Below are positions 4,134-22,667 of a stretch of DNA of 23,245 nt, piece after piece. Position 1 is the stretch's first letter. Every line of letters starts with the position of its first letter. The stretch is from contig JAZSIR010000019.1 in the NCBI GenBank assembly GCA_045533905.1, positions 1 through 23,245 of the forward strand, in the 5' to 3' direction. The position numbers and the translations under genes are program-made. Source of the DNA: Clostridia bacterium. GTDB lineage: Bacteria; Bacillota; Clostridia; UMGS1883; UMGS1540. The notes under the pieces are model-generated. The model saw only the letters and a program-made list of their open reading frames with translations, was not told the DNA's origin and searched no databases.

Positions 4134-5144
4134 TTATGCTGAAACGAGCGTGTCGCCGCCCGCAATACCGCCGACAGCTGCAAAGCGCCAGTCGTTAAAG
4201 CCTGCAATAAATCTTGCATAGCCGCTCCAGACATTTGCATCGTTGCCATCGTCAATGCGGCTCTTTACCTCGAGCTTCGTTCTGTCAAGCCATACAGCGC
4301 CGCCATACTCCTTGTTGTAGTCTGTGTCAATGAGCATCCACGGCTTTGCGCCTTCGGTGATGAACTGATTGAGGTACGGCCAGATGATAACGTTCCATCT
4401 GCCAAAGAGGTAGTTGAAGCCGTTGTTTGCCGTATTCGGGTCCTTGTCCGCGCCGATAGCCGCGAATACCGCCTTCTTTAAGGTGTATTCGTTCGGAATC
4501 ACGATGGTGGTCGGTGCCACGTCCAGGATTTCGGCATTGTCGCCGCGAAAGTCCTGCATCTTCGATTCCATAGCCGCCAGCGCGTCATCGGAAAAAGCAT
4601 CTGCAAAGAGGTTCGACTGTGTGCCCTTGCCGAGCTTCGAGGGATGGTCCTTCGAGAAAAGTGCCTTCCCGTCTGCGCACTTTGCGTCAAACTTTCTGCC
4701 GCCAAAGTCCACAGAGCCCTTGCCGCTCATCGCGCCGCCTAAAAGTGCAGCCGCAAACTTCTCGCGCGTTCTGTGGTAACCTGCAATAAAGCCGGCAGGC
4801 TGCTTTTTAAGATCCATAAGCTTTGCATCGTCCACCATTTCACGGGAAATGGAGAACTGATCCTTCCAGGTCATATGCTCAAGGAACTTATCATAGCCTT
4901 CCTGCATACCGTCGTTCGGGTATTCGCCGTTTTCGCCTACGGGCTTAAAGCCGTCCATGGCCGTCATCGTTGTAAACTTTTCACCCCAGTGCGTGCTCGT
5001 GCCCATATTAAAAAGCTCGGGAATCATAGACTGCTGCTCAAATGCTTCCCCGCGTTTTTCCAGGAACATACGAATCGGTGCCTGGCTCTTGCCGAAAATA
5101 GAATCCTGAAGGCCGCTGCCTTCGGTAAATGTCATATTTGCCAT
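4134..5144 (-). CDS. Major capsid protein (Mu gpT-like, HK97 fold)
   Basis: 336 aa; FSISREMVDD, DGKALFSKDHP, PTTIVIP, GFNDWR motifs characteristic of Mu-like capsids; follows scaffold and cement-like genes. Confidence 0.85.
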   Translation of the reverse strand: MANMTFTEGSGLQDSIFGKSQAPIRMFLEKRGEAFEQQSMIPELFNMGTSTHWGEKFTTMTAMDGFKPVGENGEYPNDGMQEGYDKFLEHMTWKDQFSISREMVDDAKLMDLKKQPAGFIAGYHRTREKFAAALLGGAMSGKGSVDFGGRKFDAKCADGKALFSKDHPSKLGKGTQSNLFADAFSDDALAAMESKMQDFRGDNAEILDVAPTTIVIPNEYTLKKAVFAAIGADKDPNTANNGFNYLFGRWNVIIWPYLNQFITEGAKPWMLIDTDYNKEYGGAVWLDRTKLEVKSRIDDGNDANVWSGYARFIAGFNDWRFAAVGGIAGGDTLVSA

Positions 5145-5162
5145 ATCGTTTCACCTCTCTCC

Positions 5163-5522
5163 TTATACAAGACGGACTAAAATGCCGTCCTCCAAAATGC
5201 CGACAACCTTGTATGCCCCGCCATCGGTTTCGCTGAACCCGTTATCTGTTATCATGCCTTGTGCGCCAAAGTCCGGCGTCTCGCCTTCCGTGTTCTTGTA
5301 CTTATATACAGTCTCGCGGTTCATGTGTACAACGGGCAAAACGCCGTCCACAGCCTTTCCCGCCATCGCAATGTATTCATGCGCATCAGCGGGCGCAGAT
5401 GCTTGCAGATCGCCGCCGCTTACATGAAGCACCGTCCCCACCTCGCTTGCATTACCAGCATACGGCAAATATTCAATGCCCGGCACGTGGCCGTCATCGG
5501 TTTTGTAAATTTCAAGTACCAT
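5163..5522 (-). CDS. Putative capsid decoration/cement protein
   Basis: 119-aa beta-rich ORF between scaffold and capsid; RBS AAAGGGAGG. Confidence 0.5.
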   Translation of the reverse strand: MVLEIYKTDDGHVPGIEYLPYAGNASEVGTVLHVSGGDLQASAPADAHEYIAMAGKAVDGVLPVVHMNRETVYKYKNTEGETPDFGAQGMITDNGFSETDGGAYKVVGILEDGILVRLV

Positions 5523-5548
5523 ACTTCTTTATTCCTCCCTTTCGGTTT

Positions 5549-6439
5549 CTATTTTTTTCTGTACGCTGCATAGTGCTTTCGGATTTCCGCATCCGTCGCG
5601 CCGGGGTTAAAGGTGCGGTACTCTGCCGCAATGTCTGCCGGCACCTCTTCGGCGCCGACTCTTCCCGTCCCCGTTTTTTCAAGATGATGCTTCGAACGCT
5701 CCGCATTTAGCGCCTGCTGCCGCGCGCGCGCCTCCGCGCCTCTTGAAAGCGTGTCAAAATGCGCAATCTTATATGCATCTGTCAGCGTGTACCCGCGCTT
5801 TACGAGCGCGTAAATCTCAGGATATTTTTCATTTTCCGTGATATCGGAGAGACTTCGAACGGAAGGGTCCAGCTCGCCAATCTCGCGCACCTGCGCCGAG
5901 ATTTTGGCTTCTGCCTCCCTCTCTCTCGCCTCACGGCTGATTTTCTCCGCTTCCTCTGCCTTTCGCCGTGCCTCACGCACCTCGGGAAGGTCCTCGATAA
6001 ATTCGCGGTATTCCTCGTCAGAAACGCCGCTCATCTTCTTGAAGCTTTCCTTCTTCTCTTTCGAAAGGTTCTCGCGGTATGCCTCAAACTCTTCCTTCGA
6101 GGTAATCGGTTTTTGGGTGTACGGGTCGAGTATCCCCGTCACCTTAAAGACTTCGGAAACATAGTCCTCCGCCTCTTTTTTCGCGCGGTTTATTTTTTCT
6201 TCGGCCTCTTTCTCCGCACGCCTTCTGGCCGCGGCAAAGCCGGCGTTTTCTTCCGCGCTCTGGCGAGGCGCTTCCGCCGGCTTCTCTTCCGAAGCTTCGG
6301 CTTCTGTCCCGCCATCGGCCGCATTGTCCGGTTCGGCGATTTCCGTCTCTTTTTCGCCTTGCATATCAGCTTCCGCCATTTCAGCCTCCGCCGTATCTAT
6401 GCCAAATACTGCACCGTAATCAATCTCACTCATAGTCAT
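5549..6439 (-). CDS. Putative capsid scaffolding protein
   Basis: 296 aa, acidic N-terminus, coiled coil (AAARRRAEKEAE), basic C-terminal tip; position upstream of capsid. Confidence 0.7.
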   Translation of the reverse strand: MTMSEIDYGAVFGIDTAEAEMAEADMQGEKETEIAEPDNAADGGTEAEASEEKPAEAPRQSAEENAGFAAARRRAEKEAEEKINRAKKEAEDYVSEVFKVTGILDPYTQKPITSKEEFEAYRENLSKEKKESFKKMSGVSDEEYREFIEDLPEVREARRKAEEAEKISREAREREAEAKISAQVREIGELDPSVRSLSDITENEKYPEIYALVKRGYTLTDAYKIAHFDTLSRGAEARARQQALNAERSKHHLEKTGTGRVGAEEVPADIAAEYRTFNPGATDAEIRKHYAAYRKK

Positions 6440-6486
6440 TCTCCTTGTATTTTTACGCTTTTACTGCGAATCGTTTAGGGATTCCC

Positions 6487-6624
6487 CTATTTCTTTGTGC
6501 GAAGGTCTTCGCCCGTCTTCACGGTGCTGTTACCGCGCTTTGTCGGCACGGCACACGGTGCCTGTACCTTCTGCGCACCCGTGTTTGCAATTTTGCCGCT
6601 GTAGCCCTTGCATTTTTCGGCCAT
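6487..6624 (-). CDS. Small basic phage protein (45 aa), first gene of late operon
   Basis: GGAAGGAGG RBS; MAEKCKGYSGKIANTGAQKVQAPCAVPTKRGNSTVKTGEDLRTKK. Not in supplied track. Confidence 0.75.
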   Translation of the reverse strand: MAEKCKGYSGKIANTGAQKVQAPCAVPTKRGNSTVKTGEDLRTKK

Positions 6625-6656
6625 ACAAATCCCTCCTTCCTTCGCTTTCTGTGCCC

Positions 6657-6690
6657 ATTATACTGCATTTCTCGCGTCGCGACGCGTCAC
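6657..6690 (-). promoter_or_regulatory. Putative activator-dependent late promoter
   Basis: TATAAT at 6662-6657; perfect 14-bp palindrome CGCGTCGCGACGCG (6673-6686) overlaps the -35 region, which is non-consensus. Confidence 0.5.
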
Positions 6691-6801
6691 TTTGCATCAA
6701 AACAAGCCCCGAAAGCTGTCCTCCGGAGCAAAAATCGCCGTATTTTTTCTAAACGCGCGTTATAGGCGTATATATCCGCGCGCCTCTCGTGGGGAAAAAC
6801 G

Positions 6802-7083
6802 CTATTCTTCCAAAAGCGGCACGGGAAAGCCCTCGTAGTATCGCCGCACCGCACGGTCAAGTGTCTTTTGCGAGATGTAATGCTTTCTGCAAATCGCCAC
6901 GCCCGTGGTATCGGTCGTCACATACTCGAAAAGCGCTCCATAGTGCGGTCCTCCGTGCTCGATGCAGAGATTCAGTATCTTTCTCTGCAGCGCAGGCGGA
7001 AGGTCTCTGTATATGCGCGACACAAAATAGATATACCCCTGCCGGTTATAGCTTACGTGCGCCCCCTTCCTAAATCGAAACAT
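6802..7083 (-). CDS. Putative late transcriptional regulator (C-terminal HTH-like)
   Basis: 93 aa, RBS GGAGG; C-terminal AICRKHYISQKTLDRAVRRYY is HTH-like; last gene before the late promoter. Confidence 0.55.
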   Translation of the reverse strand: MFRFRKGAHVSYNRQGYIYFVSRIYRDLPPALQRKILNLCIEHGGPHYGALFEYVTTDTTGVAICRKHYISQKTLDRAVRRYYEGFPVPLLEE

Positions 7084-7859
7084 GGTCCCTCCTCTCTCCG
7101 CCTTCGGCTCTCTGGTTCCTTCACCCTTCGCATCTCCAGTGTTATGTAAAGTCCGCGGTTTACAAGATTTTCCGAAAAATCCGCATCTGTGAAAACAAAG
7201 TCCGGATAGCGCTCTTCAAAATAGACGGCCGCACGCTTTTCGTCAATGGCACGTACCATCTCCTCCGTTTCCTTCCGCCCTATCGCACCATCCCTTGTTA
7301 TCGGCTCGGGCTTTGTAAGATTTCGGCTCGCGTTCCACCGTTTGTAAAATTCGTGGCTTTTGGCCATGTAATGCGTAAGTGCCGCCACTCCCTCTTCTCC
7401 AAACTGCAGCCGCTTTGAATTTGCATACCCAAGCCCCCAAAGCTCCTCCAGCTCGTCTCTTGATAGTCCCCCGTTTACGATGAGGTGGTGATGCACCCTT
7501 CCGCCTTCTCCCCCAAACTCCGTGCAGCTTATGTATTTGAGCGCCGGGAGTCCCCGTTTCTTCCTCGCACGTTTCACACGCCGTAAATAGTTTTGCAGCG
7601 CCCTTCTCGCCTCCTCTGCCGTCACATGCTCCCGGTGCGTCAGATGAAGCGCTATATCCTTCTCCGTGAAATTCGTGTGCACGAGCCGTACCAGCTTCTT
7701 CTCTGCATTTCTCTGATTGATTTTCTCCTGTATCTCACTCGTCGGCTTGCACCTTGCCCTTCTCTTTCCCGAAAGTCCAAACACCGGATAGATTTCCGTG
7801 TCCACATACGCTCCGCATATGTACACGTTCTCCCGTATAAAATATTTTCCCTTTGGCAT
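7053..7859 (-). CDS. HUH-family rolling-circle replication initiator-like protein
   Basis: Motif I-like LHLT, motif II RVHHHLIV (HUH), motif III HYMAK (YxxK); start taken at MPKGKY. Confidence 0.75.
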   Translation of the reverse strand: MPKGKYFIRENVYICGAYVDTEIYPVFGLSGKRRARCKPTSEIQEKINQRNAEKKLVRLVHTNFTEKDIALHLTHREHVTAEEARRALQNYLRRVKRARKKRGLPALKYISCTEFGGEGGRVHHHLIVNGGLSRDELEELWGLGYANSKRLQFGEEGVAALTHYMAKSHEFYKRWNASRNLTKPEPITRDGAIGRKETEEMVRAIDEKRAAVYFEERYPDFVFTDADFSENLVNRGLYITLEMRRVKEPESRRRREEGPCFDLGRGRT

Positions 7860-8036
7860 GCCCTTTCTCTCTCCTTTGGTTGTTAACTTAAGATTCACTT
7901 ACAAGCCCGAAATGCAGATAGCGCGTTTTCGCCCGGGCCTTCAGCCTGCATCTGCCGAAGACCTTGCGCGTCCTTTATATGAAAGCTCTTTGTGATTGCC
8001 ACAGCTGCGTGTGGAAATCACGAAAAGCTCCCACCT

Positions 8037-9170: not shown

Positions 9171-9198
9171 AAAAGAGCGGCAAGGCGTCCGCTCTTTT
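9171..9198. terminator. Bidirectional terminator between hicB and convergent early operon
   Basis: AAAAGAGCGG-CAAGGCGT-CCGCTCTTTT inverted repeat with A/T tails on both sides. Confidence 0.7.
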
Positions 9199-9343
9199 AC
9201 TTTTTCTCTTCTGTGTGCGCCCTGTCCGGCTTATAAAACTTGCACGGCTTCGTACCGATTTTGCAAAGAAGACGGTTTAGCCCTCGGCACCCGTACTCCA
9301 CCGATTCACTCACATACATCTTGCAGTCCTTCTTACTTTCCAC
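9197..9343 (-). CDS. Small Cys-rich phage protein (48 aa)
   Basis: GTG start after GAAGGAGG; four Cys ending CKFYK. Confidence 0.6.
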   Translation of the reverse strand: MESKKDCKMYVSESVEYGCRGLNRLLCKIGTKPCKFYKPDRAHTEEKK

Positions 9344-9608
9344 AGCTTTCCTCCTTCTCTTCGTCCACAGGATCAAAAAGACGTAAAATCCCTTTTTCAA
9401 ACGCCGCATCTTCCATCTCCGAAAACACAAGCGAAAGCGCACGGTAAAGGTCCTTTCTGTCTTCCGGAAACATTTGCGCTCTCTGCTCGGCTGCCTTTAC
9501 CGCCATCGATAGGGCAACCGCCATAATTACCTCGCTGCCCATGCCGTACTGCCGCGCGGCTGCATACCCGTTTTTGTACGCCTGTTCTGCAATGTCGTGT
9601 TCGTTCAT
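9333..9608 (-). CDS. Hypothetical phage protein
   Basis: 91 aa, RBS AAGGAGG; EQAYKNGY-type N-terminus common in phage early genes. Confidence 0.7.
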   Translation of the reverse strand: MNEHDIAEQAYKNGYAAARQYGMGSEVIMAVALSMAVKAAEQRAQMFPEDRKDLYRALSLVFSEMEDAAFEKGILRLFDPVDEEKEESCGK

Positions 9609-9997: not shown

Positions 9998-10264
9998 TCA
10001 AATCGTAATATGTATATCCGCCTCATCCCTAAGCGCCTGCTCCAAATCCGAAAGCTTTACATACCCACGGCTTACGGAATCGGCAAGGTACTCTATCGCT
10101 TCGTAAACACGTTTTAACCTTTTTACGCCGTACCCTTCCGTGTCTCGCATGGCAGAAAGGAAAAGCACAGTCGCATATCGGATGGCATCGTCCGCGGCTT
10201 CCTTCTTGATACGCCGTATGTCTGATTCCCGCATCTGCCGGCACGGGTTTTTCTTTTTCGTCAT
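9998..10264 (-). CDS. Hypothetical phage protein
   Basis: 88 aa; GYGVKRLKRVY motif; start overlaps upstream stop (ATGA). Confidence 0.75.
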   Translation of the reverse strand: MTKKKNPCRQMRESDIRRIKKEAADDAIRYATVLFLSAMRDTEGYGVKRLKRVYEAIEYLADSVSRGYVKLSDLEQALRDEADIHITI

Positions 10265-10754
10265 TCAGCCTCGCCCTTTCGCTTTGCCGTTAATTTTTTA
10301 AGTAGCTTTTCAAACTCCCTCTTGTATATGTCGCGCTCCGCCCGAACGAAAAGAAGTTCTTCCTTTGCCTCTTCAGGTATCCTCTCCACGCACGGCGCCT
10401 CCGGCTCTTCCGAAAGGCCGAGGCTCACCTTTATCGCCGCGTCCACTGCCCGCATCTCTTTTTCCGTACAGGAACCCATGAACCGCCCGAACTGCCCTTT
10501 GGAAATGCTGTGGATCTGCTCGCAAAGTGCCGTGCTCGGTCTTTCGCAGCTCATAATCTGCACGTGCGTCGGCAGCTCCTTTTTCTCTTTGGTTGTCATA
10601 TAGACTACTTCCACCACTTCGCTGTATCGGTTTCCGGTATCATTGGAAACGATAATGCCGGGTCTACCCCCCTCTGCACGCCAAAGGGTCCATCCGCCTC
10701 CGCTTCCACAAAATAAATGTCTCCGCGTAAAACTTCCCGCCATACTTCTGTCAT
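10261..10754 (-). pseudogene. PemK/MazF-family protein split by a 1-nt frameshift in a G6 run
   Basis: ATG 10754 gives ...LRGDIYFV...GVQRG; another frame gives GRPGIIVSND...LPTHV...ALCEQI...VDAAIKVSLGL; adding one G at 10667-10672 joins them. Confidence 0.8.
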
Positions 10755-10900
10755 CTTTCTTCTCCCTTCCTCTTTTGTAACTCCTCAAGCTTTGCCGCCG
10801 CATCGCGCATCACAATCCCTTCGCGTGTGTATGTACCGGCGGCATCCTCCATGCTTTTTGATTCTCTTCTGAGAAAATCGATAATTTCAAAAACGCCCAT
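10751..10900 (-). CDS. Small hypothetical phage protein (49 aa)
   Basis: MGVFEIIDFLRRESKSMEDAAGTYTREGIVMRDAAAKLEELQKRKGEER; stop overlaps the PemK start (ATGA). Not in supplied track. Confidence 0.65.
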   Translation of the reverse strand: MGVFEIIDFLRRESKSMEDAAGTYTREGIVMRDAAAKLEELQKRKGEER

Positions 10901-10902
10901 CT

Positions 10903-11547
10903 TCACACTCCGTATTCTGCCGCCTCGCGTAATATCCCGTCGGCACCCTGTATGATACTCTCTGCAAATACGCCCACAATCGCCTCGTAATTTGCAAGGC
11001 TCTCTTTAGAAAGAAGCGTAATGCATCTTGCATAATCACGCATAAGCGATACTCGTCGTCGCAAGCTCCTTTCTGTATCGCTTTCCTCATTGGAAAGCTC
11101 TCTTTTAATTCGCTGCTCCTCCTCTTCCCCTTCAAACGCAAGCGTTTGTGGGGTCCCCGTTTTTACTGCGGGCTCCTCCTTTTTTTCTGCGGGCTCCTTC
11201 TTTTTCGCCTCGCCGCGAAGCTTATATCTGGATATCCCGTACTGCACCTGCGCTGTGTCCCATCCGATTCTCTCCGCAATCGCCGCGCAGGTCATCCCCT
11301 CCATAAGAAGGCTTCGAACGGTTTGCTTTAGCTCTTCATCCCACACAAGTCTCGGGGCGCCGCTTTTTTGGTACGTCGCAGCTTTCTTCTTTTTCTTTTC
11401 TCCCGGAACGCCGGAAATAAGTCCCGCATTCTGCAGCACGAACAAAATGTCCTCCTTACTGCAGCATGCAAGGTCTGCCAGAATTTCTATCTGCGCATTT
11501 TTGTCCTTCGCCTCTTTGTACATCTGTATGATCTCGTATGTTGTCAT
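10903..11547 (-). CDS. Phage HTH DNA-binding protein containing the ~105-bp element in frame
   Basis: WDEELKQTVRSLLMEGMTCAAIAERIGWDTAQVQY is HTH-like; segment GTPQTLAFEGEEEEQR...RRR is encoded by the repeat. Confidence 0.7.
   Translation of the reverse strand: MTTYEIIQMYKEAKDKNAQIEILADLACCSKEDILFVLQNAGLISGVPGEKKKKKAATYQKSGAPRLVWDEELKQTVRSLLMEGMTCAAIAERIGWDTAQVQYGISRYKLRGEAKKKEPAEKKEEPAVKTGTPQTLAFEGEEEEQRIKRELSNEESDTERSLRRRVSLMRDYARCITLLSKESLANYEAIVGVFAESIIQGADGILREAAEYGV
11054..11158 (-). repeat. Structured ~105-bp element, copy 1
   Basis: About 90% identical to 12145-12248 by manual alignment; two internal hairpins. Confidence 0.9.
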
Positions 11548-11568
11548 CTCGTCGCCATATGCTCCTTT

Positions 11569-11847
11569 CTATACTGTTTCCTCTTTAGCTTCCATGTCAG
11601 AAAGCGCCACAATCATTTCGCATTCGTTCACATAGAACCATTCCTTTGCCGTCCGGATCACCTCATCCGCAACTTCTTTTATAATCTTGGAAAGCGTAGG
11701 ACTAAAGGAGTCGAATTCAGCCTCTTCATACATATTTTCGAGAAGCTGCGTCCGCACAAACTCCATGCCGTTTACAAAAGCACGATTCTGTTCACCTAAA
11801 TCCTCTTTTTTGTATGTACCGTCTTCCACAAGCTTTACCATATCCAT
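11569..11847 (-). CDS. Hypothetical acidic phage protein
   Basis: 92 aa, RBS GGGAG, in early operon. Confidence 0.7.
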   Translation of the reverse strand: MDMVKLVEDGTYKKEDLGEQNRAFVNGMEFVRTQLLENMYEEAEFDSFSPTLSKIIKEVADEVIRTAKEWFYVNECEMIVALSDMEAKEETV

Positions 11848-11851
11848 CGTT

Positions 11852-12121
11852 TCATTCTCCCTTCATTACCGGCACCCGGAGCCGCTCATGCGGCCAAAGG
11901 CTCGCCGTTTCTTTGTTATTGAGTTCTTTTACTTCGTGTATCCATTTGTCCGCTCTGCCGTAGCCGTATTCCTCCCATATGCTCCAGAGGGTGTCCCCCT
12001 CCCGAACTACTACTTCTCTGGTGGTATACTCCACGTCCGCCGTACGGACGAAGGAGGTAATCATACATACCACTATAAAAACCGCCAGTATCCATAAAAA
12101 CCGTTTTTCTGCTTTGTTCAT
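11852..12121 (-). CDS. Membrane-anchored LysM protein (YneA-like)
   Basis: N-terminal TM helix FLWILAVFIVVCMI followed by LysM motif VVREGDTLWSI...ELNN...L.P.ERLRVP. Confidence 0.8.
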   Translation of the reverse strand: MNKAEKRFLWILAVFIVVCMITSFVRTADVEYTTREVVVREGDTLWSIWEEYGYGRADKWIHEVKELNNKETASLWPHERLRVPVMKGE

Positions 12122-12127
12122 TTTCCC

Positions 12128-12412
12128 CTATGCCTCCGCCGCCACGTCGTCGCAAGCTCCTTTGTATATCGCTTTCCTTCTCGGAAAGCTCTCTGTTTTT
12201 CGCTGCTCCTCCTCTTCCCCTTCAAACGCAAGCGTTTGTGGGGGCCCCATCATAGTTTTTAAAATATCGGCACAGGCCATCGCCTCTGCAAATTCTCTTT
12301 CGAATCCCCGGGCCGCTCTTTCCAGCCCATAGTTCTCGCTCGCTTCAAACGCACGGTCGAGCACGAGCGAAAGCGCCATTCGAATTGCTTTTTCTTTGGT
12401 CATCTCCCTCAT
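12128..12412 (-). CDS. Hypothetical phage protein whose C-terminal third is encoded by the ~105-bp element
   Basis: 94 aa; GPPQTLAFEGEEEEQR...GACDD derives from repeat copy 2. Confidence 0.65.
   Translation of the reverse strand: MREMTKEKAIRMALSLVLDRAFEASENYGLERAARGFEREFAEAMACADILKTMMGPPQTLAFEGEEEEQRKTESFPRRKAIYKGACDDVAAEA
12145..12248 (-). repeat. Structured ~104-bp element, copy 2
   Basis: Direct repeat of 11054-11158 in the same orientation; flanks unrelated. Confidence 0.9.
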
Positions 12413-12561
12413 CCTTTCGTTTGTTTTTCTTCCTGTACGGCCTTCGCAAGCATTTCACACATGCTCTCCAGTGCCGCCACACGTCGCTGGAGCGGCAGCG
12501 TCAACACAAACGAAGTCGCGCCGGCAACCAATAGTATCAAAAGCCAAAACATCGCGCGCAC
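12409..12561 (-). CDS. Small membrane protein (50 aa)
   Basis: AAAGGAGG RBS, GTG start; MRAMFWLLILLVAGATSFVLTLPLQRRVAALESMCEMLAKAVQEEKQTKG; stop overlaps next ATG. Confidence 0.65.
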   Translation of the reverse strand: MRAMFWLLILLVAGATSFVLTLPLQRRVAALESMCEMLAKAVQEEKQTKG

Positions 12562-12580
12562 GTCGTCACAACCTCCTTTC

Positions 12581-12886
12581 TTATGCCGGCAGCGTTTTTT
12601 CAGAATCGCCGAACAGCTTTTTGTATTTCTTGTACCGCACTTCCATGTCCGCTACATCAAGCCCCCAAACCTCATACGCGATTTTGGTATTCACGGCATT
12701 GCGCGTACAGCAGAAGTATTTGCCCTCCCGCATCTTTTCAAATACAGGCCGCTTCAAGTTGGTAATCGTCCCGGCAGATACATTTCCAAACAGCTGTCGA
12801 ATATCCTCGCTCGTAAGCTCCGGCGTGCTGTAGTAAATCCGAAGCGCCGTTTCCAGGTTCTGCACCTTAAACATTCTTTGCTTCAT
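12581..12886 (-). CDS. Putative DNA-binding phage protein
   Basis: 101 aa; ELTSEDIRQLFGNVSAGTITNLK is HTH-like; coupled to the upstream Cro-like gene. Confidence 0.65.
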   Translation of the reverse strand: MKQRMFKVQNLETALRIYYSTPELTSEDIRQLFGNVSAGTITNLKRPVFEKMREGKYFCCTRNAVNTKIAYEVWGLDVADMEVRYKKYKKLFGDSEKTLPA

Positions 12887-14960: not shown

Positions 14961-15908
14961 GTGATTTCCTATCTTTTCTTCGTTGTTGTTCTCCCCGCTT
15001 GCTTATTTTATATCGTTGACTCTTTTCGGGAGAAAGCAAAAAAACTTTCCGAATGTGTCTCTTATATCGATAAATTCTCCTTGGCACATTCTGTTTTAGA
15101 GGAAAAATATGCCCTTCTGAAAAAGATGAAGAGCATCGTAAAGGATGACGTGGTCGTAGGGCGAGACGGGCTCCCGCGCCTTCTTTCCCCGGAGCACGAC
15201 TGGGGCTTTCCTTTCACCGTATATAAAACGCCCACGGGTCGCAAGCTGCACATCCTGTACGGATGCAACGGCGCACACGAAGCGCGGCATCTGTATACCC
15301 TGAAGGCAGACGAACTTTCCGAAGAAAATTTCTGCGGCCGTTGCAGGCATCTCCTCCCGGAAAAAATTCTCTCCTTTCTTATGCTGTACCGGGAATGCGA
15401 ACTTCACTTAGGAAGGATGGATTTTGCCTGCCGCTTCCTTGAAAAAAATCTTTTGCAATGCGACAAAGGCATTATGCGTCTCTGGTGCTACTGTAAAATC
15501 AAAAAGTACAAAAAAGAGCTCCTCCGCATGCGCGATGAAAAAGACGCGATGCAAAGTAAGCTCTCTATCATGTTTCGCAAAGGGTATCTTGGGCTTGAAG
15601 GCGCCGAATTTTACAGAGTGTGCTTCTCCCACACCTCGCCTGCCGGTACCAATCCGGAGGCTCCGTTTATTGCCGCGCTCCGTCCGGTTCCAAAGGTAGG
15701 CGAACCCGTCGGCACTTCCTATCACATCCTCCGCCTCGGCTTTCCAAAAGGCGGCTTCGTGGTTTACGACAATAACACTCCCCTCATAAGAGGAAAAGAA
15801 CATAAACTTTTGGGATTTGAAAAAGAAGAGAAGTATACACACTATGTGTATCTGGCAGAAGACAGTTTTAATCTTCTCCCCCCTTCTTCTACATACCCGG
15901 AAAAATAA
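14961..15908 (+). CDS. Membrane-anchored hypothetical protein with His/Cys motif
   Basis: GGAGG RBS, GTG start; N-terminal TM helix; VYKTPTGRKLH...C...CGRC. Confidence 0.65.
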   Translation: MISYLFFVVVLPACLFYIVDSFREKAKKLSECVSYIDKFSLAHSVLEEKYALLKKMKSIVKDDVVVGRDGLPRLLSPEHDWGFPFTVYKTPTGRKLHILYGCNGAHEARHLYTLKADELSEENFCGRCRHLLPEKILSFLMLYRECELHLGRMDFACRFLEKNLLQCDKGIMRLWCYCKIKKYKKELLRMRDEKDAMQSKLSIMFRKGYLGLEGAEFYRVCFSHTSPAGTNPEAPFIAALRPVPKVGEPVGTSYHILRLGFPKGGFVVYDNNTPLIRGKEHKLLGFEKEEKYTHYVYLAEDSFNLLPPSSTYPEK

Positions 15909-15930
15909 AACTGCAAAAGGAGGCTGCGCC

Positions 15931-17061
15931 ATGCCCATCACTAAGATAGACGGCAAAAAGAAATACGGCAAACAAGGATACCGCGTCCGCGTAAACTTCA
16001 CCGATGCCTACGGCAAGGCGCGACAGATAGAGCGCACCGTATATGGCATTGAAGAAGCTAAAGAGGCCGAACGCCAGCTCTCCTTGTCCTGCAAAGAAAC
16101 CACGCCTTCCGCACTTACGCTGGAGGCGCTTTCTTGCCGCTATTTCTCCTCGCAAAAGCACGAAGTGCGCGAGAGCACCCTTGCAAAGAACCGCTGCATT
16201 TTTGAAACGCACATCCTCCCGGCCTTGGGCGATACCCGCATTGATAAACTCAGCGTGAAAATTCTGGAGGACTGGAAAACTGCCATAAACGAAAAGGGGC
16301 TTTCCTTCTCTATGCGCAAGAACATCTATTCTGTGCTCCGCGCGATGCTAAATTATGCCGTGCGCATAGACCTTCTGCCGAAGAACCCCCTGCATCGCGT
16401 CGGCAATTTCAAGGATGCATATGAGAAAAAAGAAACGATACAGTATTATACGAAAGAGCAGTTTGTAGCTTTTATATCTGCCGCCTACGCCGATGCGCAG
16501 GAGACAGGCGATATGCGATACTACACCTTCTTCTCTACACTTTTCTATACAGGTGCACGCAAAGGCGAAGCAAATGCCCTAGACTGGTCTGATTTAGACG
16601 GCGATATTTTGCACATCGGCAAAAACGTGGTGCAAAAGCTGCAGGGCGATGACAGAATCACCCCTCCTAAAAACAAGGCATCCGACCGCACGCTTCAGGT
16701 TCCTGCTCCTCTCCTTTATGTTTTTGAGGAACAGAAGGCCTGGCAAAAGAAAAACGGTATATACAGCCGTCATTCTAAAATTTGCGGTGGATTGTCCTTC
16801 CTTCGTGATACGAGTATTGAAAAGAAAAATAAACAATATGCCGAAGCTGCCGGCCTTCCTAAAATCCGCATACACGACTTCCGGCATTCTCACGCCTCTC
16901 TTCTGGCAAACGAAGGCATCAACATACAAGAAATCGCACGTCGCCTCGGCCACTCCAAAATCGAGATGACGTGGAATACATATTCCCATCTGTACCCAAG
17001 AGAAGAGGAAAGAGCCGTCAAGCTCTTAAACCAAATTCCTCTTCCTAAAAAAGGAGAATAG
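15931..17061 (+). CDS. int: Tyrosine recombinase / phage integrase
   Basis: YTGARKGE (Arg), HDFRHSHAS (HxxR), RLGH and TYSHLY (Tyr); AAGGAGG RBS before MPITK. Confidence 0.96.
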   Translation: MPITKIDGKKKYGKQGYRVRVNFTDAYGKARQIERTVYGIEEAKEAERQLSLSCKETTPSALTLEALSCRYFSSQKHEVRESTLAKNRCIFETHILPALGDTRIDKLSVKILEDWKTAINEKGLSFSMRKNIYSVLRAMLNYAVRIDLLPKNPLHRVGNFKDAYEKKETIQYYTKEQFVAFISAAYADAQETGDMRYYTFFSTLFYTGARKGEANALDWSDLDGDILHIGKNVVQKLQGDDRITPPKNKASDRTLQVPAPLLYVFEEQKAWQKKNGIYSRHSKICGGLSFLRDTSIEKKNKQYAEAAGLPKIRIHDFRHSHASLLANEGINIQEIARRLGHSKIEMTWNTYSHLYPREEERAVKLLNQIPLPKKGE

Positions 17062-17078
17062 ATATGGAAAACAATATG

Positions 17079-17100
17079 TTTTCGGGGATTTTTCGGGGAT
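17079..17100 (+). repeat. Tandem 11-bp repeat TTTTCGGGGAT x2, probable integrase arm-type sites
   Basis: Exact tandem duplication between integrase stop and ssrA 3' end; inverted partial copy CCCCGAAAA at 17114-17122. Confidence 0.6.
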
Positions 17101-17109
17101 TAAAAATAA

Positions 17110-17133
17110 AAAACCCCGAAAAATCGAGGTTTT
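17110..17133. terminator. Terminator between integrase and ssrA
   Basis: AAAACCCCGA-AAAA-TCGAGGTTTT imperfect hairpin with A/T tails. Confidence 0.6.
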
Positions 17134-17142
17134 CTACCAATT

Positions 17143-17489
17143 TGGTGGAAGCGGCGGGAGTTGAACCCGCGTCCGAAAACATATTCACAAGAGCCTCTCC
17201 GAGCGCAGTTTGTGATTAAAATTCCCGCCTTTGCAAGTTCACAAACAACCTTACAAATTTGGTAGCTTCATTATGCATGCTTGCGGCAAAGCTTACGCAA
17301 GTCACGTTCACTGCTAAGTCACGCCCTGTCCCGCGCCGCAGTCCTCGCGGGCAAGACGGCAGCTTTTAATTAAGCTGCAAAAGCTAACTTATTATTGTCG
17401 CTTAATATTTAAGTTTGGGCTTTTTAAGAGGCGCCCGCCTCTGCTCGCTGCTCCGGCTGCAACATCCCCGTCGAAACCGTTACGCCCCC
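17143..17489 (-). ncRNA. ssrA: tmRNA; tag peptide (A)DNNKLAFAA*
   Basis: 5' GGGGGCGTAACGGTTTCGAC; 3' GACGCGGGTTCAACTCCCGCCGCTTCCACCA; G3:U acceptor pair; tag reading frame 17399-17370. Confidence 0.96.
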
Positions 17490-21142: not shown

Positions 21143-21219
21143 GGAGGCATAGCTCAGCTGGTTAGAGCGCTCGCTTCACATGCGAGAGGTCGTAGGTTCA
21201 AGTCCTACTGTCTCTACCA
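21143..21219 (+). tRNA. tRNA-Val (anticodon CAC)
   Basis: GGAGGCA/TGTCTCT acceptor, AGCTCAGCTGGTTAGAGC D-arm, CTCGC-TTCACAT-GCGAG anticodon arm, GTTCAAG T-loop, encoded CCA. Confidence 0.97.
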
Positions 21220-21223
21220 TAAT

Positions 21224-21266
21224 AGCGAGATGATATTACTGTCAGTAGTGTCATCTCGCTTTTTTA
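21224..21266 (+). terminator. Terminator after tRNA-Val
   Basis: AGCGAGATGA...TCATCTCGCT stem followed by a T run. Confidence 0.75.
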
Positions 21267-21436
21267 TGCGGTTTTTCGAGGTTTTAAGTTCAAAATTTTT
21301 CGAGAACAAATTTGTTACTGTCAATAGTATTTTTGAAAGATTTGAACCCTCACCCTAAATTCAATATCAATTTCAAAGCACAGAGTAAATTTTCTACTCT
21401 GTGTTTTTTTATTTGAATTTAAGGAGGAAAACTTTA

Positions 21437-22252
21437 ATGAAACTAAATGGAAACTTCACTATTATACCTAACGAATTTATTAACGACCCGAGACTCGATG
21501 TATATGAATTTCGTATCCTTTGTTACCTGATGAAATTATCAGGATGCAACTCTTCCTGCTACCCCTCTTACGAAACTATCGCAAGAGAAACCGGAATGAG
21601 TTTATCAAAGGCAAAGAATGGAATTAAAAATTTGATTGAATACGGAATAATTACCAAAGAGAACCGAGAGAAAAAGTTCGGAGGTGCTGCAGCAAATCTT
21701 TATGTGGTGTGTGTAAAAATCATCGATGAAGATGATGAGGTTACAGAAAACACTACCGACAGTATTCCTGATGACTCACCCTCTGGTGTGTCTGAAGAAC
21801 GAGGTGGTGTTCAAGATGACTGCAATAAATATATAAATAAAAATATTAATTATTTTATTAATAACCATCTATCATCAATAGAAGATTTGATGGATCGTGC
21901 AGAAACATATGAACTGAATGGACTGACAAAGAAGAATTATGAATCGGCTATTGAGATTATGTTTAATTCAGAATCAATTTCGGTTGGCGGTGAAATTATT
22001 CCCCGTGAAATTGTTCGCAGGCGATTAGAAAATATCAGCTACGAGCATATCGTCTATGTCGATAATAATATGCTGAGGAAAATTGTTAACGGCAAGGTTG
22101 AAATTCAAGTCAGAAGTCCTGTTCCATATATCATAACTGCTCTATATAATGCACTCCGATATACGGCAGATGAAATTGTAAAGATGGAATACGGAGATGA
22201 TGTATCTGCTGACCTCTTCCGGAAGGAGGATGACGATGAGATATTTATATAA
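21437..22252 (+). CDS. HTH_36-type replication initiator-like protein
   Basis: AAGGAGG RBS; FTIIPNEFI...CYPSYETIARETGMS...LIEYGII winged-HTH pattern, acidic linker, helical C-terminus. Confidence 0.7.
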   Translation: MKLNGNFTIIPNEFINDPRLDVYEFRILCYLMKLSGCNSSCYPSYETIARETGMSLSKAKNGIKNLIEYGIITKENREKKFGGAAANLYVVCVKIIDEDDEVTENTTDSIPDDSPSGVSEERGGVQDDCNKYINKNINYFINNHLSSIEDLMDRAETYELNGLTKKNYESAIEIMFNSESISVGGEIIPREIVRRRLENISYEHIVYVDNNMLRKIVNGKVEIQVRSPVPYIITALYNALRYTADEIVKMEYGDDVSADLFRKEDDDEIFI

Positions 22253-22667
22253 TCAGCAAAACAAATTCGGGAATTGTTTTATACTTCCCAATTCCATTAT
22301 GCAACTGGATTTAAGTCCACTCGCTCGGCTGATATATTTCTATCTCATCTATATTGAGGACAGAAAAACTTATCAGTGCTATCCGAGTTACAAAACTATT
22401 GGTAAAGCTCTTAAAATAAAAAGCATAACTACCGTTGCTAAATATGTAAGGGAGCTTGAAGATAAGTGTTTAATCTATACTGAACCAACAGAAATAATTC
22501 TGAAAAATGGTAAAAAACAAAATGGCAATTTGAAATATACAATCAGGCCTATCCAAGATGCCGTTGAGTATTTTCATCAGCAGCAGATGAAAAAGTTTCA
22601 GGAAGATTTAGCTCGGGAAAATGCTAAAAAAATGCTTGAAGAATATGAAAAAAAGCATCCAAAATGA
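22236..22667 (+). CDS. HTH_36-type DNA-binding protein
   Basis: GGAGG RBS; FILPNSI...QCYPSYKTIGKAL...TVAKYVRELEDKCLI; overlaps the end of the previous gene. Confidence 0.75.
   Translation: MRYLYNQQNKFGNCFILPNSIMQLDLSPLARLIYFYLIYIEDRKTYQCYPSYKTIGKALKIKSITTVAKYVRELEDKCLIYTEPTEIILKNGKKQNGNLKYTIRPIQDAVEYFHQQQMKKFQEDLARENAKKMLEEYEKKHPK

Follow-up and report, generated by a model that had tools for sequence, protein, structure and literature searches.

A dispersed double-hairpin repeat of Clostridia inserted in frame in two genes of a prophage

The prophage and its two repeat copies

The DNA studied here (the window: 23,245 nt, contig C20 of the 1.57-Mb genome G000) carries a prophage beside the tmRNA gene, with genes for an integrase, a repressor, cro-like proteins, an SSB, a rolling-circle-type replication initiator (Rep), capsid and tail proteins and an amidase (Table 1). 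No terminase or portal gene occurs among the window ORFs tested, in a contig that is possibly incomplete. We infer that the rolling-circle-type Rep is a source of single-stranded DNA; its gene occurs with scaffold-like and capsid genes of the prophage in the section 4134-7898. Two loci with the same early genes as the window prophage, L037 and L040, have terminases and primase-type replication modules. The phage early region includes a PemK/MazF-like gene (10261-10803), the upstream part of which has a one-base difference at 10666 when compared with runs X1 and X2, and its listed start may therefore be a frameshift artefact. At 21143-22667, an inverted repeat and two genes resembling HTH_36 replication initiators lie behind a tRNA-Val gene, i.e., the start of a second integrated element; in genome G004, a copy of the repeat family described below follows the counterpart of this tRNA-Val.

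Table 1. Features of the window that bear on the repeat and its surroundings.
Feature	Position	Strand	Remarks
Replication initiator of the prophage, rolling-circle type	7053..7898	-	PF23343 E 3e-11; phrog_3584, phrog_3419
Empty third site, overlap of ORFs 9333-9608 and 9197-9342	9342..9354	.	
ORF1, 214 aa	10903..11547	-	three predicted helical domains, the middle one HTH-like; variable linkers
Element copy 1	11054..11158	-	covariance-model score 89.1 bits
Copy 1, long hairpin B	about 11123-11054	-	inner stem 11098-11080; GACG end
Copy 1, hairpin A	about 11153-11127	-	
Spacer between ribosome-binding site and start of ORF1	11548..11573	-	like the element 3′ tail (81% over 26 nt)
ORF2, small phage protein, 91-94 aa	12128..12412	-	
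Element copy 2	12145..12252	-	104-nt core 12145-12248 + 4 extra bases; covariance-model score 80.2 bits
Spacer between ribosome-binding site and start of ORF 12409-12561	12561..12581	-	like the element 3′ tail (19/21)
Tyrosine integrase of the prophage	15817..17061	+	
tmRNA gene	17143..17489	-	prophage at its 3′ end

ORF1 and ORF2 each harbour one copy of a repeat. As the preliminary description had it, the copies are co-oriented and highly similar (91.4% identity in an alignment of 105 columns; E 2e-36 in a search of the 1.57-Mb genome), the flanks of 11054-11158 and 12145-12248 do not match, and no stop codon is introduced, both copies being open on the coding (minus) strand of ORFs 10903-11547 and 12128-12412. 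On that strand, copy 1 encodes GTPQTLAFEGEEEEQRIKRELSNEESDTERSLRR and copy 2 encodes GPPQTLAFEGEEEEQRKTESFPRRKAIYKGACDD, and the 1-nt frame switch reported earlier could be retraced, the second halves of the two peptides being read in different frames. They are the closest pair of copies, 1.09 kb apart. A purine linker separates hairpins A and B in copy 1. The antisense strand of both copies scores terminator-like and the sense strand does not. The two spacers in Table 1 resemble the 3′ tail of the element: that of ORF1 is a possible relic of an older insertion, and the other possibly either such a relic or a look-alike target.

A family of structured repeats in Clostridia

In a profile search, 17 copies were found in G000, of which 15 are located outside the prophage; the 12 copies compared by eye with the ORF lists all lie between genes. 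The earlier view of a mobile element in phage genes thus stands for a mobile-looking repeat with a phage sub-lineage (see below), not for an element that mainly inhabits phage genes. A covariance model built from 35 copies matched 55 of 87 genomes of the order, no genome having more than 44 matches; in samples of 151 genomes each, it matched 44 from the class and four from the phylum, two of these four being outside the class. Amongst the titled loci, nearly all belong to Clostridia or Oscillospiraceae MAGs.

The family element measures about 100-120 nt and folds into two hairpins with 24 consensus pairs, 17 of which change on both sides amongst the 35 copies. Paired cells amount to 93.5%; shuffles reach 78.4% and slid registers 38-51%. 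The structure was taken from the same sequences, and relatedness inflates tests of this kind. At its base, hairpin B stacks G-C pairs and tandem G·A oppositions in a ladder: GA/GA makes up the outer duplex in 34 of the 35 copies, and the inner duplex is GA/GA in 22 copies and of Watson-Crick type in 10 (GA/TC or AA/TT). In single-stranded nucleic acid, DNA as well as RNA, tandem G·A pairs are stable, and only the purine-rich strand can adopt the G·A helix. The GACG end (CGTC on the other strand) is nearly invariant in the 35 aligned copies; the opposite end is CCCC followed by mixed bases, and CCA stands just outside the CGTC end. The ends GGGG and GACG are not complementary, i.e., there are no terminal inverted repeats. 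Some copies are arranged as head-to-head dimers or are embedded in hairpin repeats of other kinds. At L158 (G192:C27), a gene and two element copies occur in a perfect inverted duplication around a short palindrome, which may be an assembly artefact.

The covarying structure, the different reading frames and the occurrence of the peptide in no other protein family bear out the earlier proposal that the element is conserved as nucleic acid and not as protein. The whole number of codons that the same description gave for copy 1 does not extend to the family, element lengths being evenly spread modulo 3 (26/33/27). Stop-free frames exceed those in shuffles (103/258 against 80.6; 186/258 against 135.6); we did not count this excess as design for ORF tolerance because the copies are related.

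Rfam gave no family at gathering score over the element, in searches of the window and 14 loci with family copies. No match to the element was obtained in GenBank phages or PLSDB plasmids, in IMG/VR with two DNA patterns and two protein queries, or in the JGI metagenomes with one strict pattern. We did not find the family described in the literature searched, including the available parts of PMC6006769, PMC12306157 and PMC9282650; subscription journals or supplements could list it.

The host copies have a preferred neighbourhood. The complete 3′ end of a tRNA or tmRNA, of 11 kinds of RNA in all, lies within 6 nt of 29 of the 145 non-redundant copies, whose CGTC end is set against the CCA. In the five genomes for which every match was fetched, 10 of 30 copies are so placed; with 41 such genes in 1.57 Mb, a copy would land there by chance in about 1 of 10,000 cases. 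Behind the tRNAs, the structured strand is the untranscribed one, and a copy behind tRNA-Glu was not called as a terminator. In a comparison at the genus level, the tRNA flanks were too diverged to give junctions. A copy adjoins the tmRNA 3′ end in genome G008. In G000 itself, L074 (G000:C3:98140-98600) is a tmRNA 3′-end fragment with an attached family copy, with the same short repeat on both flanks that is also present beside the window integrase (17080-17120); it looks like a junction between tandem tmRNA-integrated elements. At L051, L056 and L061, tandem units of ~223-230 nt behind tRNA-Pro or tRNA-Val end in the element plus a copy of the tRNA T-arm and CCA, the element having the opposite orientation to the usual tRNA-adjacent copies.

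YGS, which the other strand reads as CCA, GCA, CCG or GCG, follows 28 of 113 other copies; control offsets give 7.8 ± 2.7, the copies counted not being independent; the 5′ flank dinucleotides are mixed. A second kind of placement is the loop of the oriT inverted repeat, just upstream of a nick site like that of RSF1010 MobA (as given in the available part of PMC4814116), where eight of 98 copies are located. Four of 12 matches to the nic motif (L008, L045, L068 and L073) had been dropped by eye since they are devoid of the oriT inverted repeat. Four of the eight loci include a MobA/MobL gene. In the same part of PMC4814116, only the base of the oriT hairpin contacts MobA, so inserts in the loop may simply be tolerated. 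Seven further copies (L044, L047, L049, L050, L052, L057 and L059) have one common downstream flank, which may be a second oriT-associated site; the neighbour gene at L044 is NikA/MobC-like, and L047 is labelled as a Bacteroidota MAG.

Filled and empty sites in phage genes

Copy 1 encodes residues 130-165 of ORF1. In an alignment of the 15 proteins returned for ORF1, the peptide lies in the second linker of two, the window protein (P0001) and P0003, the only proteins in which the element peptide was found; P0007 has an in-frame insertion with a version of the peptide in the other, first linker. Two of the 15 end in YGVPENADAF, matching by eye the coding of the start of a family copy in L004, and 10 are without the element peptide. 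Amongst the homologues, the second linker varies between 24 and 59 residues, and in P0006, P0007, P0008, P0010, P0011 and P0015, it includes recurring peptides such as TPHQSATLTASPQG and NPSVGKADSS, seemingly translated from other hairpin repeats, possibly those of a second family; the second linker seems to gather several repeats. An AlphaFold model of ORF1 (15 sequences; mean pLDDT 71, pTM 0.27) has three helical parts, with low-confidence stretches at 47-64 and 114-138. The insert begins in the latter, and residues 139-165 are modelled as a helix, not as disorder. Foldseek returned no PDB match for ORF1 at E ≤ 0.001.

The empty alleles nearest to the window protein, P0002 and P0018 (191 aa), read AVKAAEESKEKTGALYEVSL where the window has AVK-element-VSL. 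At the DNA level, 119 window bases are missing from a 3678-nt contig of run X2, which has 50 other letters in their place, a net difference of 69 nt, or 23 codons. This empty site, beside 11049, matches the left junction in AAAAACGGG and the right one in ACGA. Copy 1 is therefore a replacement of a short target between microhomologies, with a net gain of 23 codons and, in the comparison of the X2 empty site with the window, no target duplication. Eight codons (AAEESKEK) are missing at the filled site, lost either in the same event as the insertion or in a separate one: the 9-nt match on the left requires a separate deletion of 24 nt, and otherwise the match is only 4 nt. DNA-level microhomology is documented at copy 1 only. 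Run X8 provides a second empty variant of the site, without GGG. It had been noted earlier that removal of the 105 bp of copy 1 leaves a seamless frame. The frame is indeed open after such a deletion, but the product is not the ancestral gene, as the empty alleles P0002 and P0018 read otherwise; since target codons were lost on arrival, deleting copy 1 does not restore ancestral ORF1.

One of the two filled ORF1 lineages, that of P0003 and run X1 (perhaps not independent of each other), has lost one base inside the element, which puts the last domain out of frame; the domain downstream of the insert may consequently not be under strong selection. Downstream of the insert, the window and P0003 visibly differ at six places, all of them third codon positions of the native frame; five of the changes are synonymous, and all may be older than the insertion. 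Between the empty X2 allele and the window, four positions in 10903-11049 differ, against at least six differences between filled P0003 and the window downstream of the insert; as the empty allele is nearer to the window than the filled one, the ORF1 alleles are mosaic.

Four homologues of ORF2 have 55 aa, i.e., they are 36 residues shorter and keep the native last residues; an 834-aa protein in the same cluster (P0019) was judged unrelated by inspection and left out. The insert consists of the 104-nt core plus four bases, 108 nt or 36 codons in frame, placed ahead of the native last codons and stop of ORF2. The site is empty in runs X1, X2 and X4 and at locus L021, the letters of X4 and L021 being identical at this site and the two perhaps not independent; run X3 consists of short pieces only, spanning neither copy site. 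A series of alleles emerges, in which X2 is without both copies, X1 has only copy 1 and the window has both. The preliminary description had proposed homologues as a guide to the ends of the element and to target duplications; they delimit a 108-nt insert at copy 2, and at copy 1 a replacement, with no constant duplication. Translation of the ~35-aa inserts is plausible and, so far, predicted from the reading frames.

Empty alleles of both genes had been proposed as a check, with the thought that a lack of other copies and universal occupancy amongst homologues would point to a local duplication that happened once, or to a protein domain common to the two genes. The short distance between the two closest copies could suggest such an origin. 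Empty alleles exist for both genes, however (P0002, P0018 and X2 for copy 1; the four 55-aa homologues for copy 2), and with hundreds of family copies elsewhere, different frames and no peptide family, local duplication and a shared domain are refuted, and we give them practically no weight.

Removal or skipping of the insert at the RNA level, by self-splicing or ribosomal bypass and with no peptide added, could be read from the conserved one-strand structure, which lies on the coding strand. It is nevertheless highly improbable: there is no Rfam match, both inserts keep the frame, which is needless for splicing, excision of copy 1 would not bring back the lost native codons, and behind tRNAs it is the untranscribed strand that is structured.

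A third site in the same early region is empty in the window (Table 1), and G004 (L002), run X1 and run X4 have a copy there with 91% identity. The junction was established from BLAST coordinates and direct reading, the MAFFT alignment of the pair being wrong. The copy brings the stop codon with which the upstream gene ends and a ribosome-binding site for the gene that follows; a 30-nt look-alike of its own 3′ part stands before it, and the 8-9-nt gene overlap is apparently present on both sides of the element. Related prophages in G005, G045 and G020 have one more distant copy each, at other early-region positions; the element occurs at five or more different positions in one prophage family. 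Five copies from this family form a group with 99/96 support, apart from the host copies, in a tree of 110 columns in which two of the five rows of the phage clade have long branches. The window copies are 91% identical to the copy in the G004 prophage and 61-66% identical to nine host copies; together with the separate tree group, this difference implies that a sub-lineage has spread within the phage family. Three relatives of the window prophage encode AAA_24 proteins, which we take to be Sak4-type recombinases.

Filled alleles in several divergent phage genomes from different runs speak against the view that the copies are neutral debris of a decaying prophage, whose genes are no longer expressed, so that nothing is translated and the frame was kept by chance. 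Both ORFs and their neighbours are intact, and the window/P0003 differences, all at third positions, point the same way insofar as they do not predate the insertion. The absence of terminase and portal genes from the ORFs tested and the frameshift inside the element in P0003/X1 would suit such decay, and the chance of two in-frame outcomes is 1 in 9; we regard it as rather unlikely.

Copies also occur in unrelated prophages: ahead of the terminase operon (L161), between the head-closure and neck genes (L231), antisense beside an HNH gene (L229) and before an exonuclease gene (L228), where the upstream stop comes from the element, as does a predicted N-terminal extension of 19 residues. By hand tally, the element lies on the sense strand in 11 of 12 phage placements. 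One could see here a domesticated regulatory module, a portable stop, ribosome-binding site and start codon with a terminator-like antisense strand, which is selected as such and mobile only secondarily. The element ends at or provides a start codon at the third site, L041, L039, L231 and L228, and at L228 it is the upstream stop as well; the window copies are terminator-like on the antisense strand only. Yet empty alleles are common, close relatives differ in occupancy, the tRNA-Glu copy was not called as a terminator, and the purging of harmful insertions explains the orientation bias equally well, which makes domestication improbable.

Movement of the repeat and its relation to known systems

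The reading we prefer, with a probability of about 0.65, is that the two window segments belong to a dispersed, non-coding double-hairpin repeat of Clostridia, likely selfish and REP-like, with its enzymes encoded elsewhere, and that the copies persist probably since they keep the frame in tolerant stretches of proteins. The junctions vary: target DNA was lost at copy 1, four extra bases were gained at copy 2 and the gene overlap is apparently on both sides at the third site. Such heterogeneity disfavours a classical transposase with a fixed duplication. The purine-rich strand would fold as single-stranded nucleic acid, in which tandem G·A pairs can swap with Watson-Crick pairs, and the folded strand would be pasted into single-stranded targets by enzymes acting in trans. 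Inside the phage, this would most likely proceed by microhomology-guided strand annealing or template switching during replication and recombination; the window prophage has an SSB and a rolling-circle Rep. Selection would then retain the sense-strand copies that keep the frame or provide a stop, a ribosome-binding site and a start codon. That copies adjoin tRNA CCA ends exactly is suggestive of targeting by an enzyme more than of random annealing.

The main rival is a derivative of IS200/IS605 or REP/RAYT elements moved by peel-and-paste, in which an HUH (Y1) enzyme in trans inserts the repeat 3′ of a CCA-like target and the phage junctions reflect later damage. It fits the tRNA and oriT copies better than annealing does. 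The subterminal hairpins, the fixed terminal tag and the lack of a constant duplication agree with the chemistry in the available part of PMC6006769. Copies at tRNA/tmRNA ends and the YGS excess amongst the others would follow from such targeting, and the eight copies beside MOBQ-type nic sites and the rolling-circle Rep of the prophage involve two enzyme types that are both HUH nucleases. On the other side, G000 has only a Y1 remnant, a full-length Y1 is present in two of 10 copy-rich genomes and none in three, and no copy lies within about 1.5 kb of any of 12 Y1 loci in eight genomes. Together with the mixed 5′ flank dinucleotides and the target bases lost at copy 1, this leaves peel-and-paste a possible but not a likely explanation.

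Other candidate mobilisers fared no better. G000 has no RT, no IS110 and no small GIY-YIG gene, its GIY-YIG domain being that of UvrC only. In copy-rich genomes, copies do not bracket any of two IS110, five RT and five UvrC loci, one weak match near an IS110 locus lying, by eye, outside IS110. Eight loci chosen for their nearby copy pairs enclose, as far as listed, ordinary genes or other repeats; the motif scans for HUH and GIY-YIG proteins missed the known positives MobA and UvrC and carry no weight. Speculatively, and with less confidence than we grant peel-and-paste, the repeat may be a mini-element without transposase. Its folded G·A strand would exploit a process at tRNA 3′ ends or the nicking enzymes of other mobile elements, namely conjugative relaxases and phage rolling-circle Reps, and would seek out hairpin loops and CCA ends; in phage operons it would serve as portable gene punctuation and linker peptide, altering protein ends and gene overlaps.

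Movement of in-frame palindromic repeats is rarely caught, and here a single phage family has alleles with neither copy, with one and with both. Their junctions, known at the DNA level, make transposase-less movement of CGTC-type repeats directly testable. The family is widespread in gut Clostridia, with targeting of tRNA ends and oriT loops, and in phage annotations the element yields spurious shared peptides and shifted gene starts.

Prokaryotic MITEs have terminal inverted repeats and a target-site duplication. The family is like them in being short, non-coding, multi-copy, structured and capable of in-frame fusion with genes, but it is without terminal inverted repeats and without a constant target-site duplication, the three junctions being different. 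More similarity exists with the CGTC-tagged REPs (Di Nocera, De Gregorio & Rocco 2013, PMC3733652, as far as the available part goes), which likewise have CGTC at one end, are multi-copy and mainly intergenic, form head-to-head dimers, have no dedicated transposase found and include occasional in-frame intragenic copies. Those REPs consist of a single 8-9-bp stem with a 4-5-nt loop, 20-40 bp in all, and a CCA tail, whereas the family has ~105 nt, two hairpins and tandem G·A pairs (PMC3733652, available part). The CGTC tag is unpaired there and part of the G·A helix here; CCA is a tail there and, in the family, stands outside the CGTC end as an apparent target. The words Firmicutes and Clostrid- are absent from the main text of PMC3733652.

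Like the family, Rickettsia palindromic elements, as described in the available part of PMC10969869, are palindromic repeats of 100-150 nt, in frame in unrelated genes, with empty orthologues. According to the same part of that source, they encode a conserved peptide and are often intragenic, whereas the family peptide switches frame between copies and the family is mostly intergenic, with its intragenic copies in phage; copy 1 moreover replaced target DNA, unlike these elements. With REP/REPIN-RAYT (TnpA-REP) systems and IS200/IS605 ends (PMC6006769, available part), the family has in common subterminal hairpins, a fixed tetranucleotide tag, no target duplication and a probable single-stranded phase. 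It differs from REPIN/RAYT in that no Y1 gene is flanked by elements (none of the 12 loci from eight genomes), and from IS200/IS605 derivatives in having no fixed target tetranucleotide, a loose YGS bias only and imprecise junctions, again by the available part of PMC6006769. By size and stem, peptide, terminal inverted repeats, duplication and the RAYT comparison, we place the family in none of the REP, RPE (Rickettsia palindromic element), RAYT or MITE groups. In-frame behaviour of this kind is already known, and the family, its targeting and the series of filled and empty alleles are new to the sources searched.
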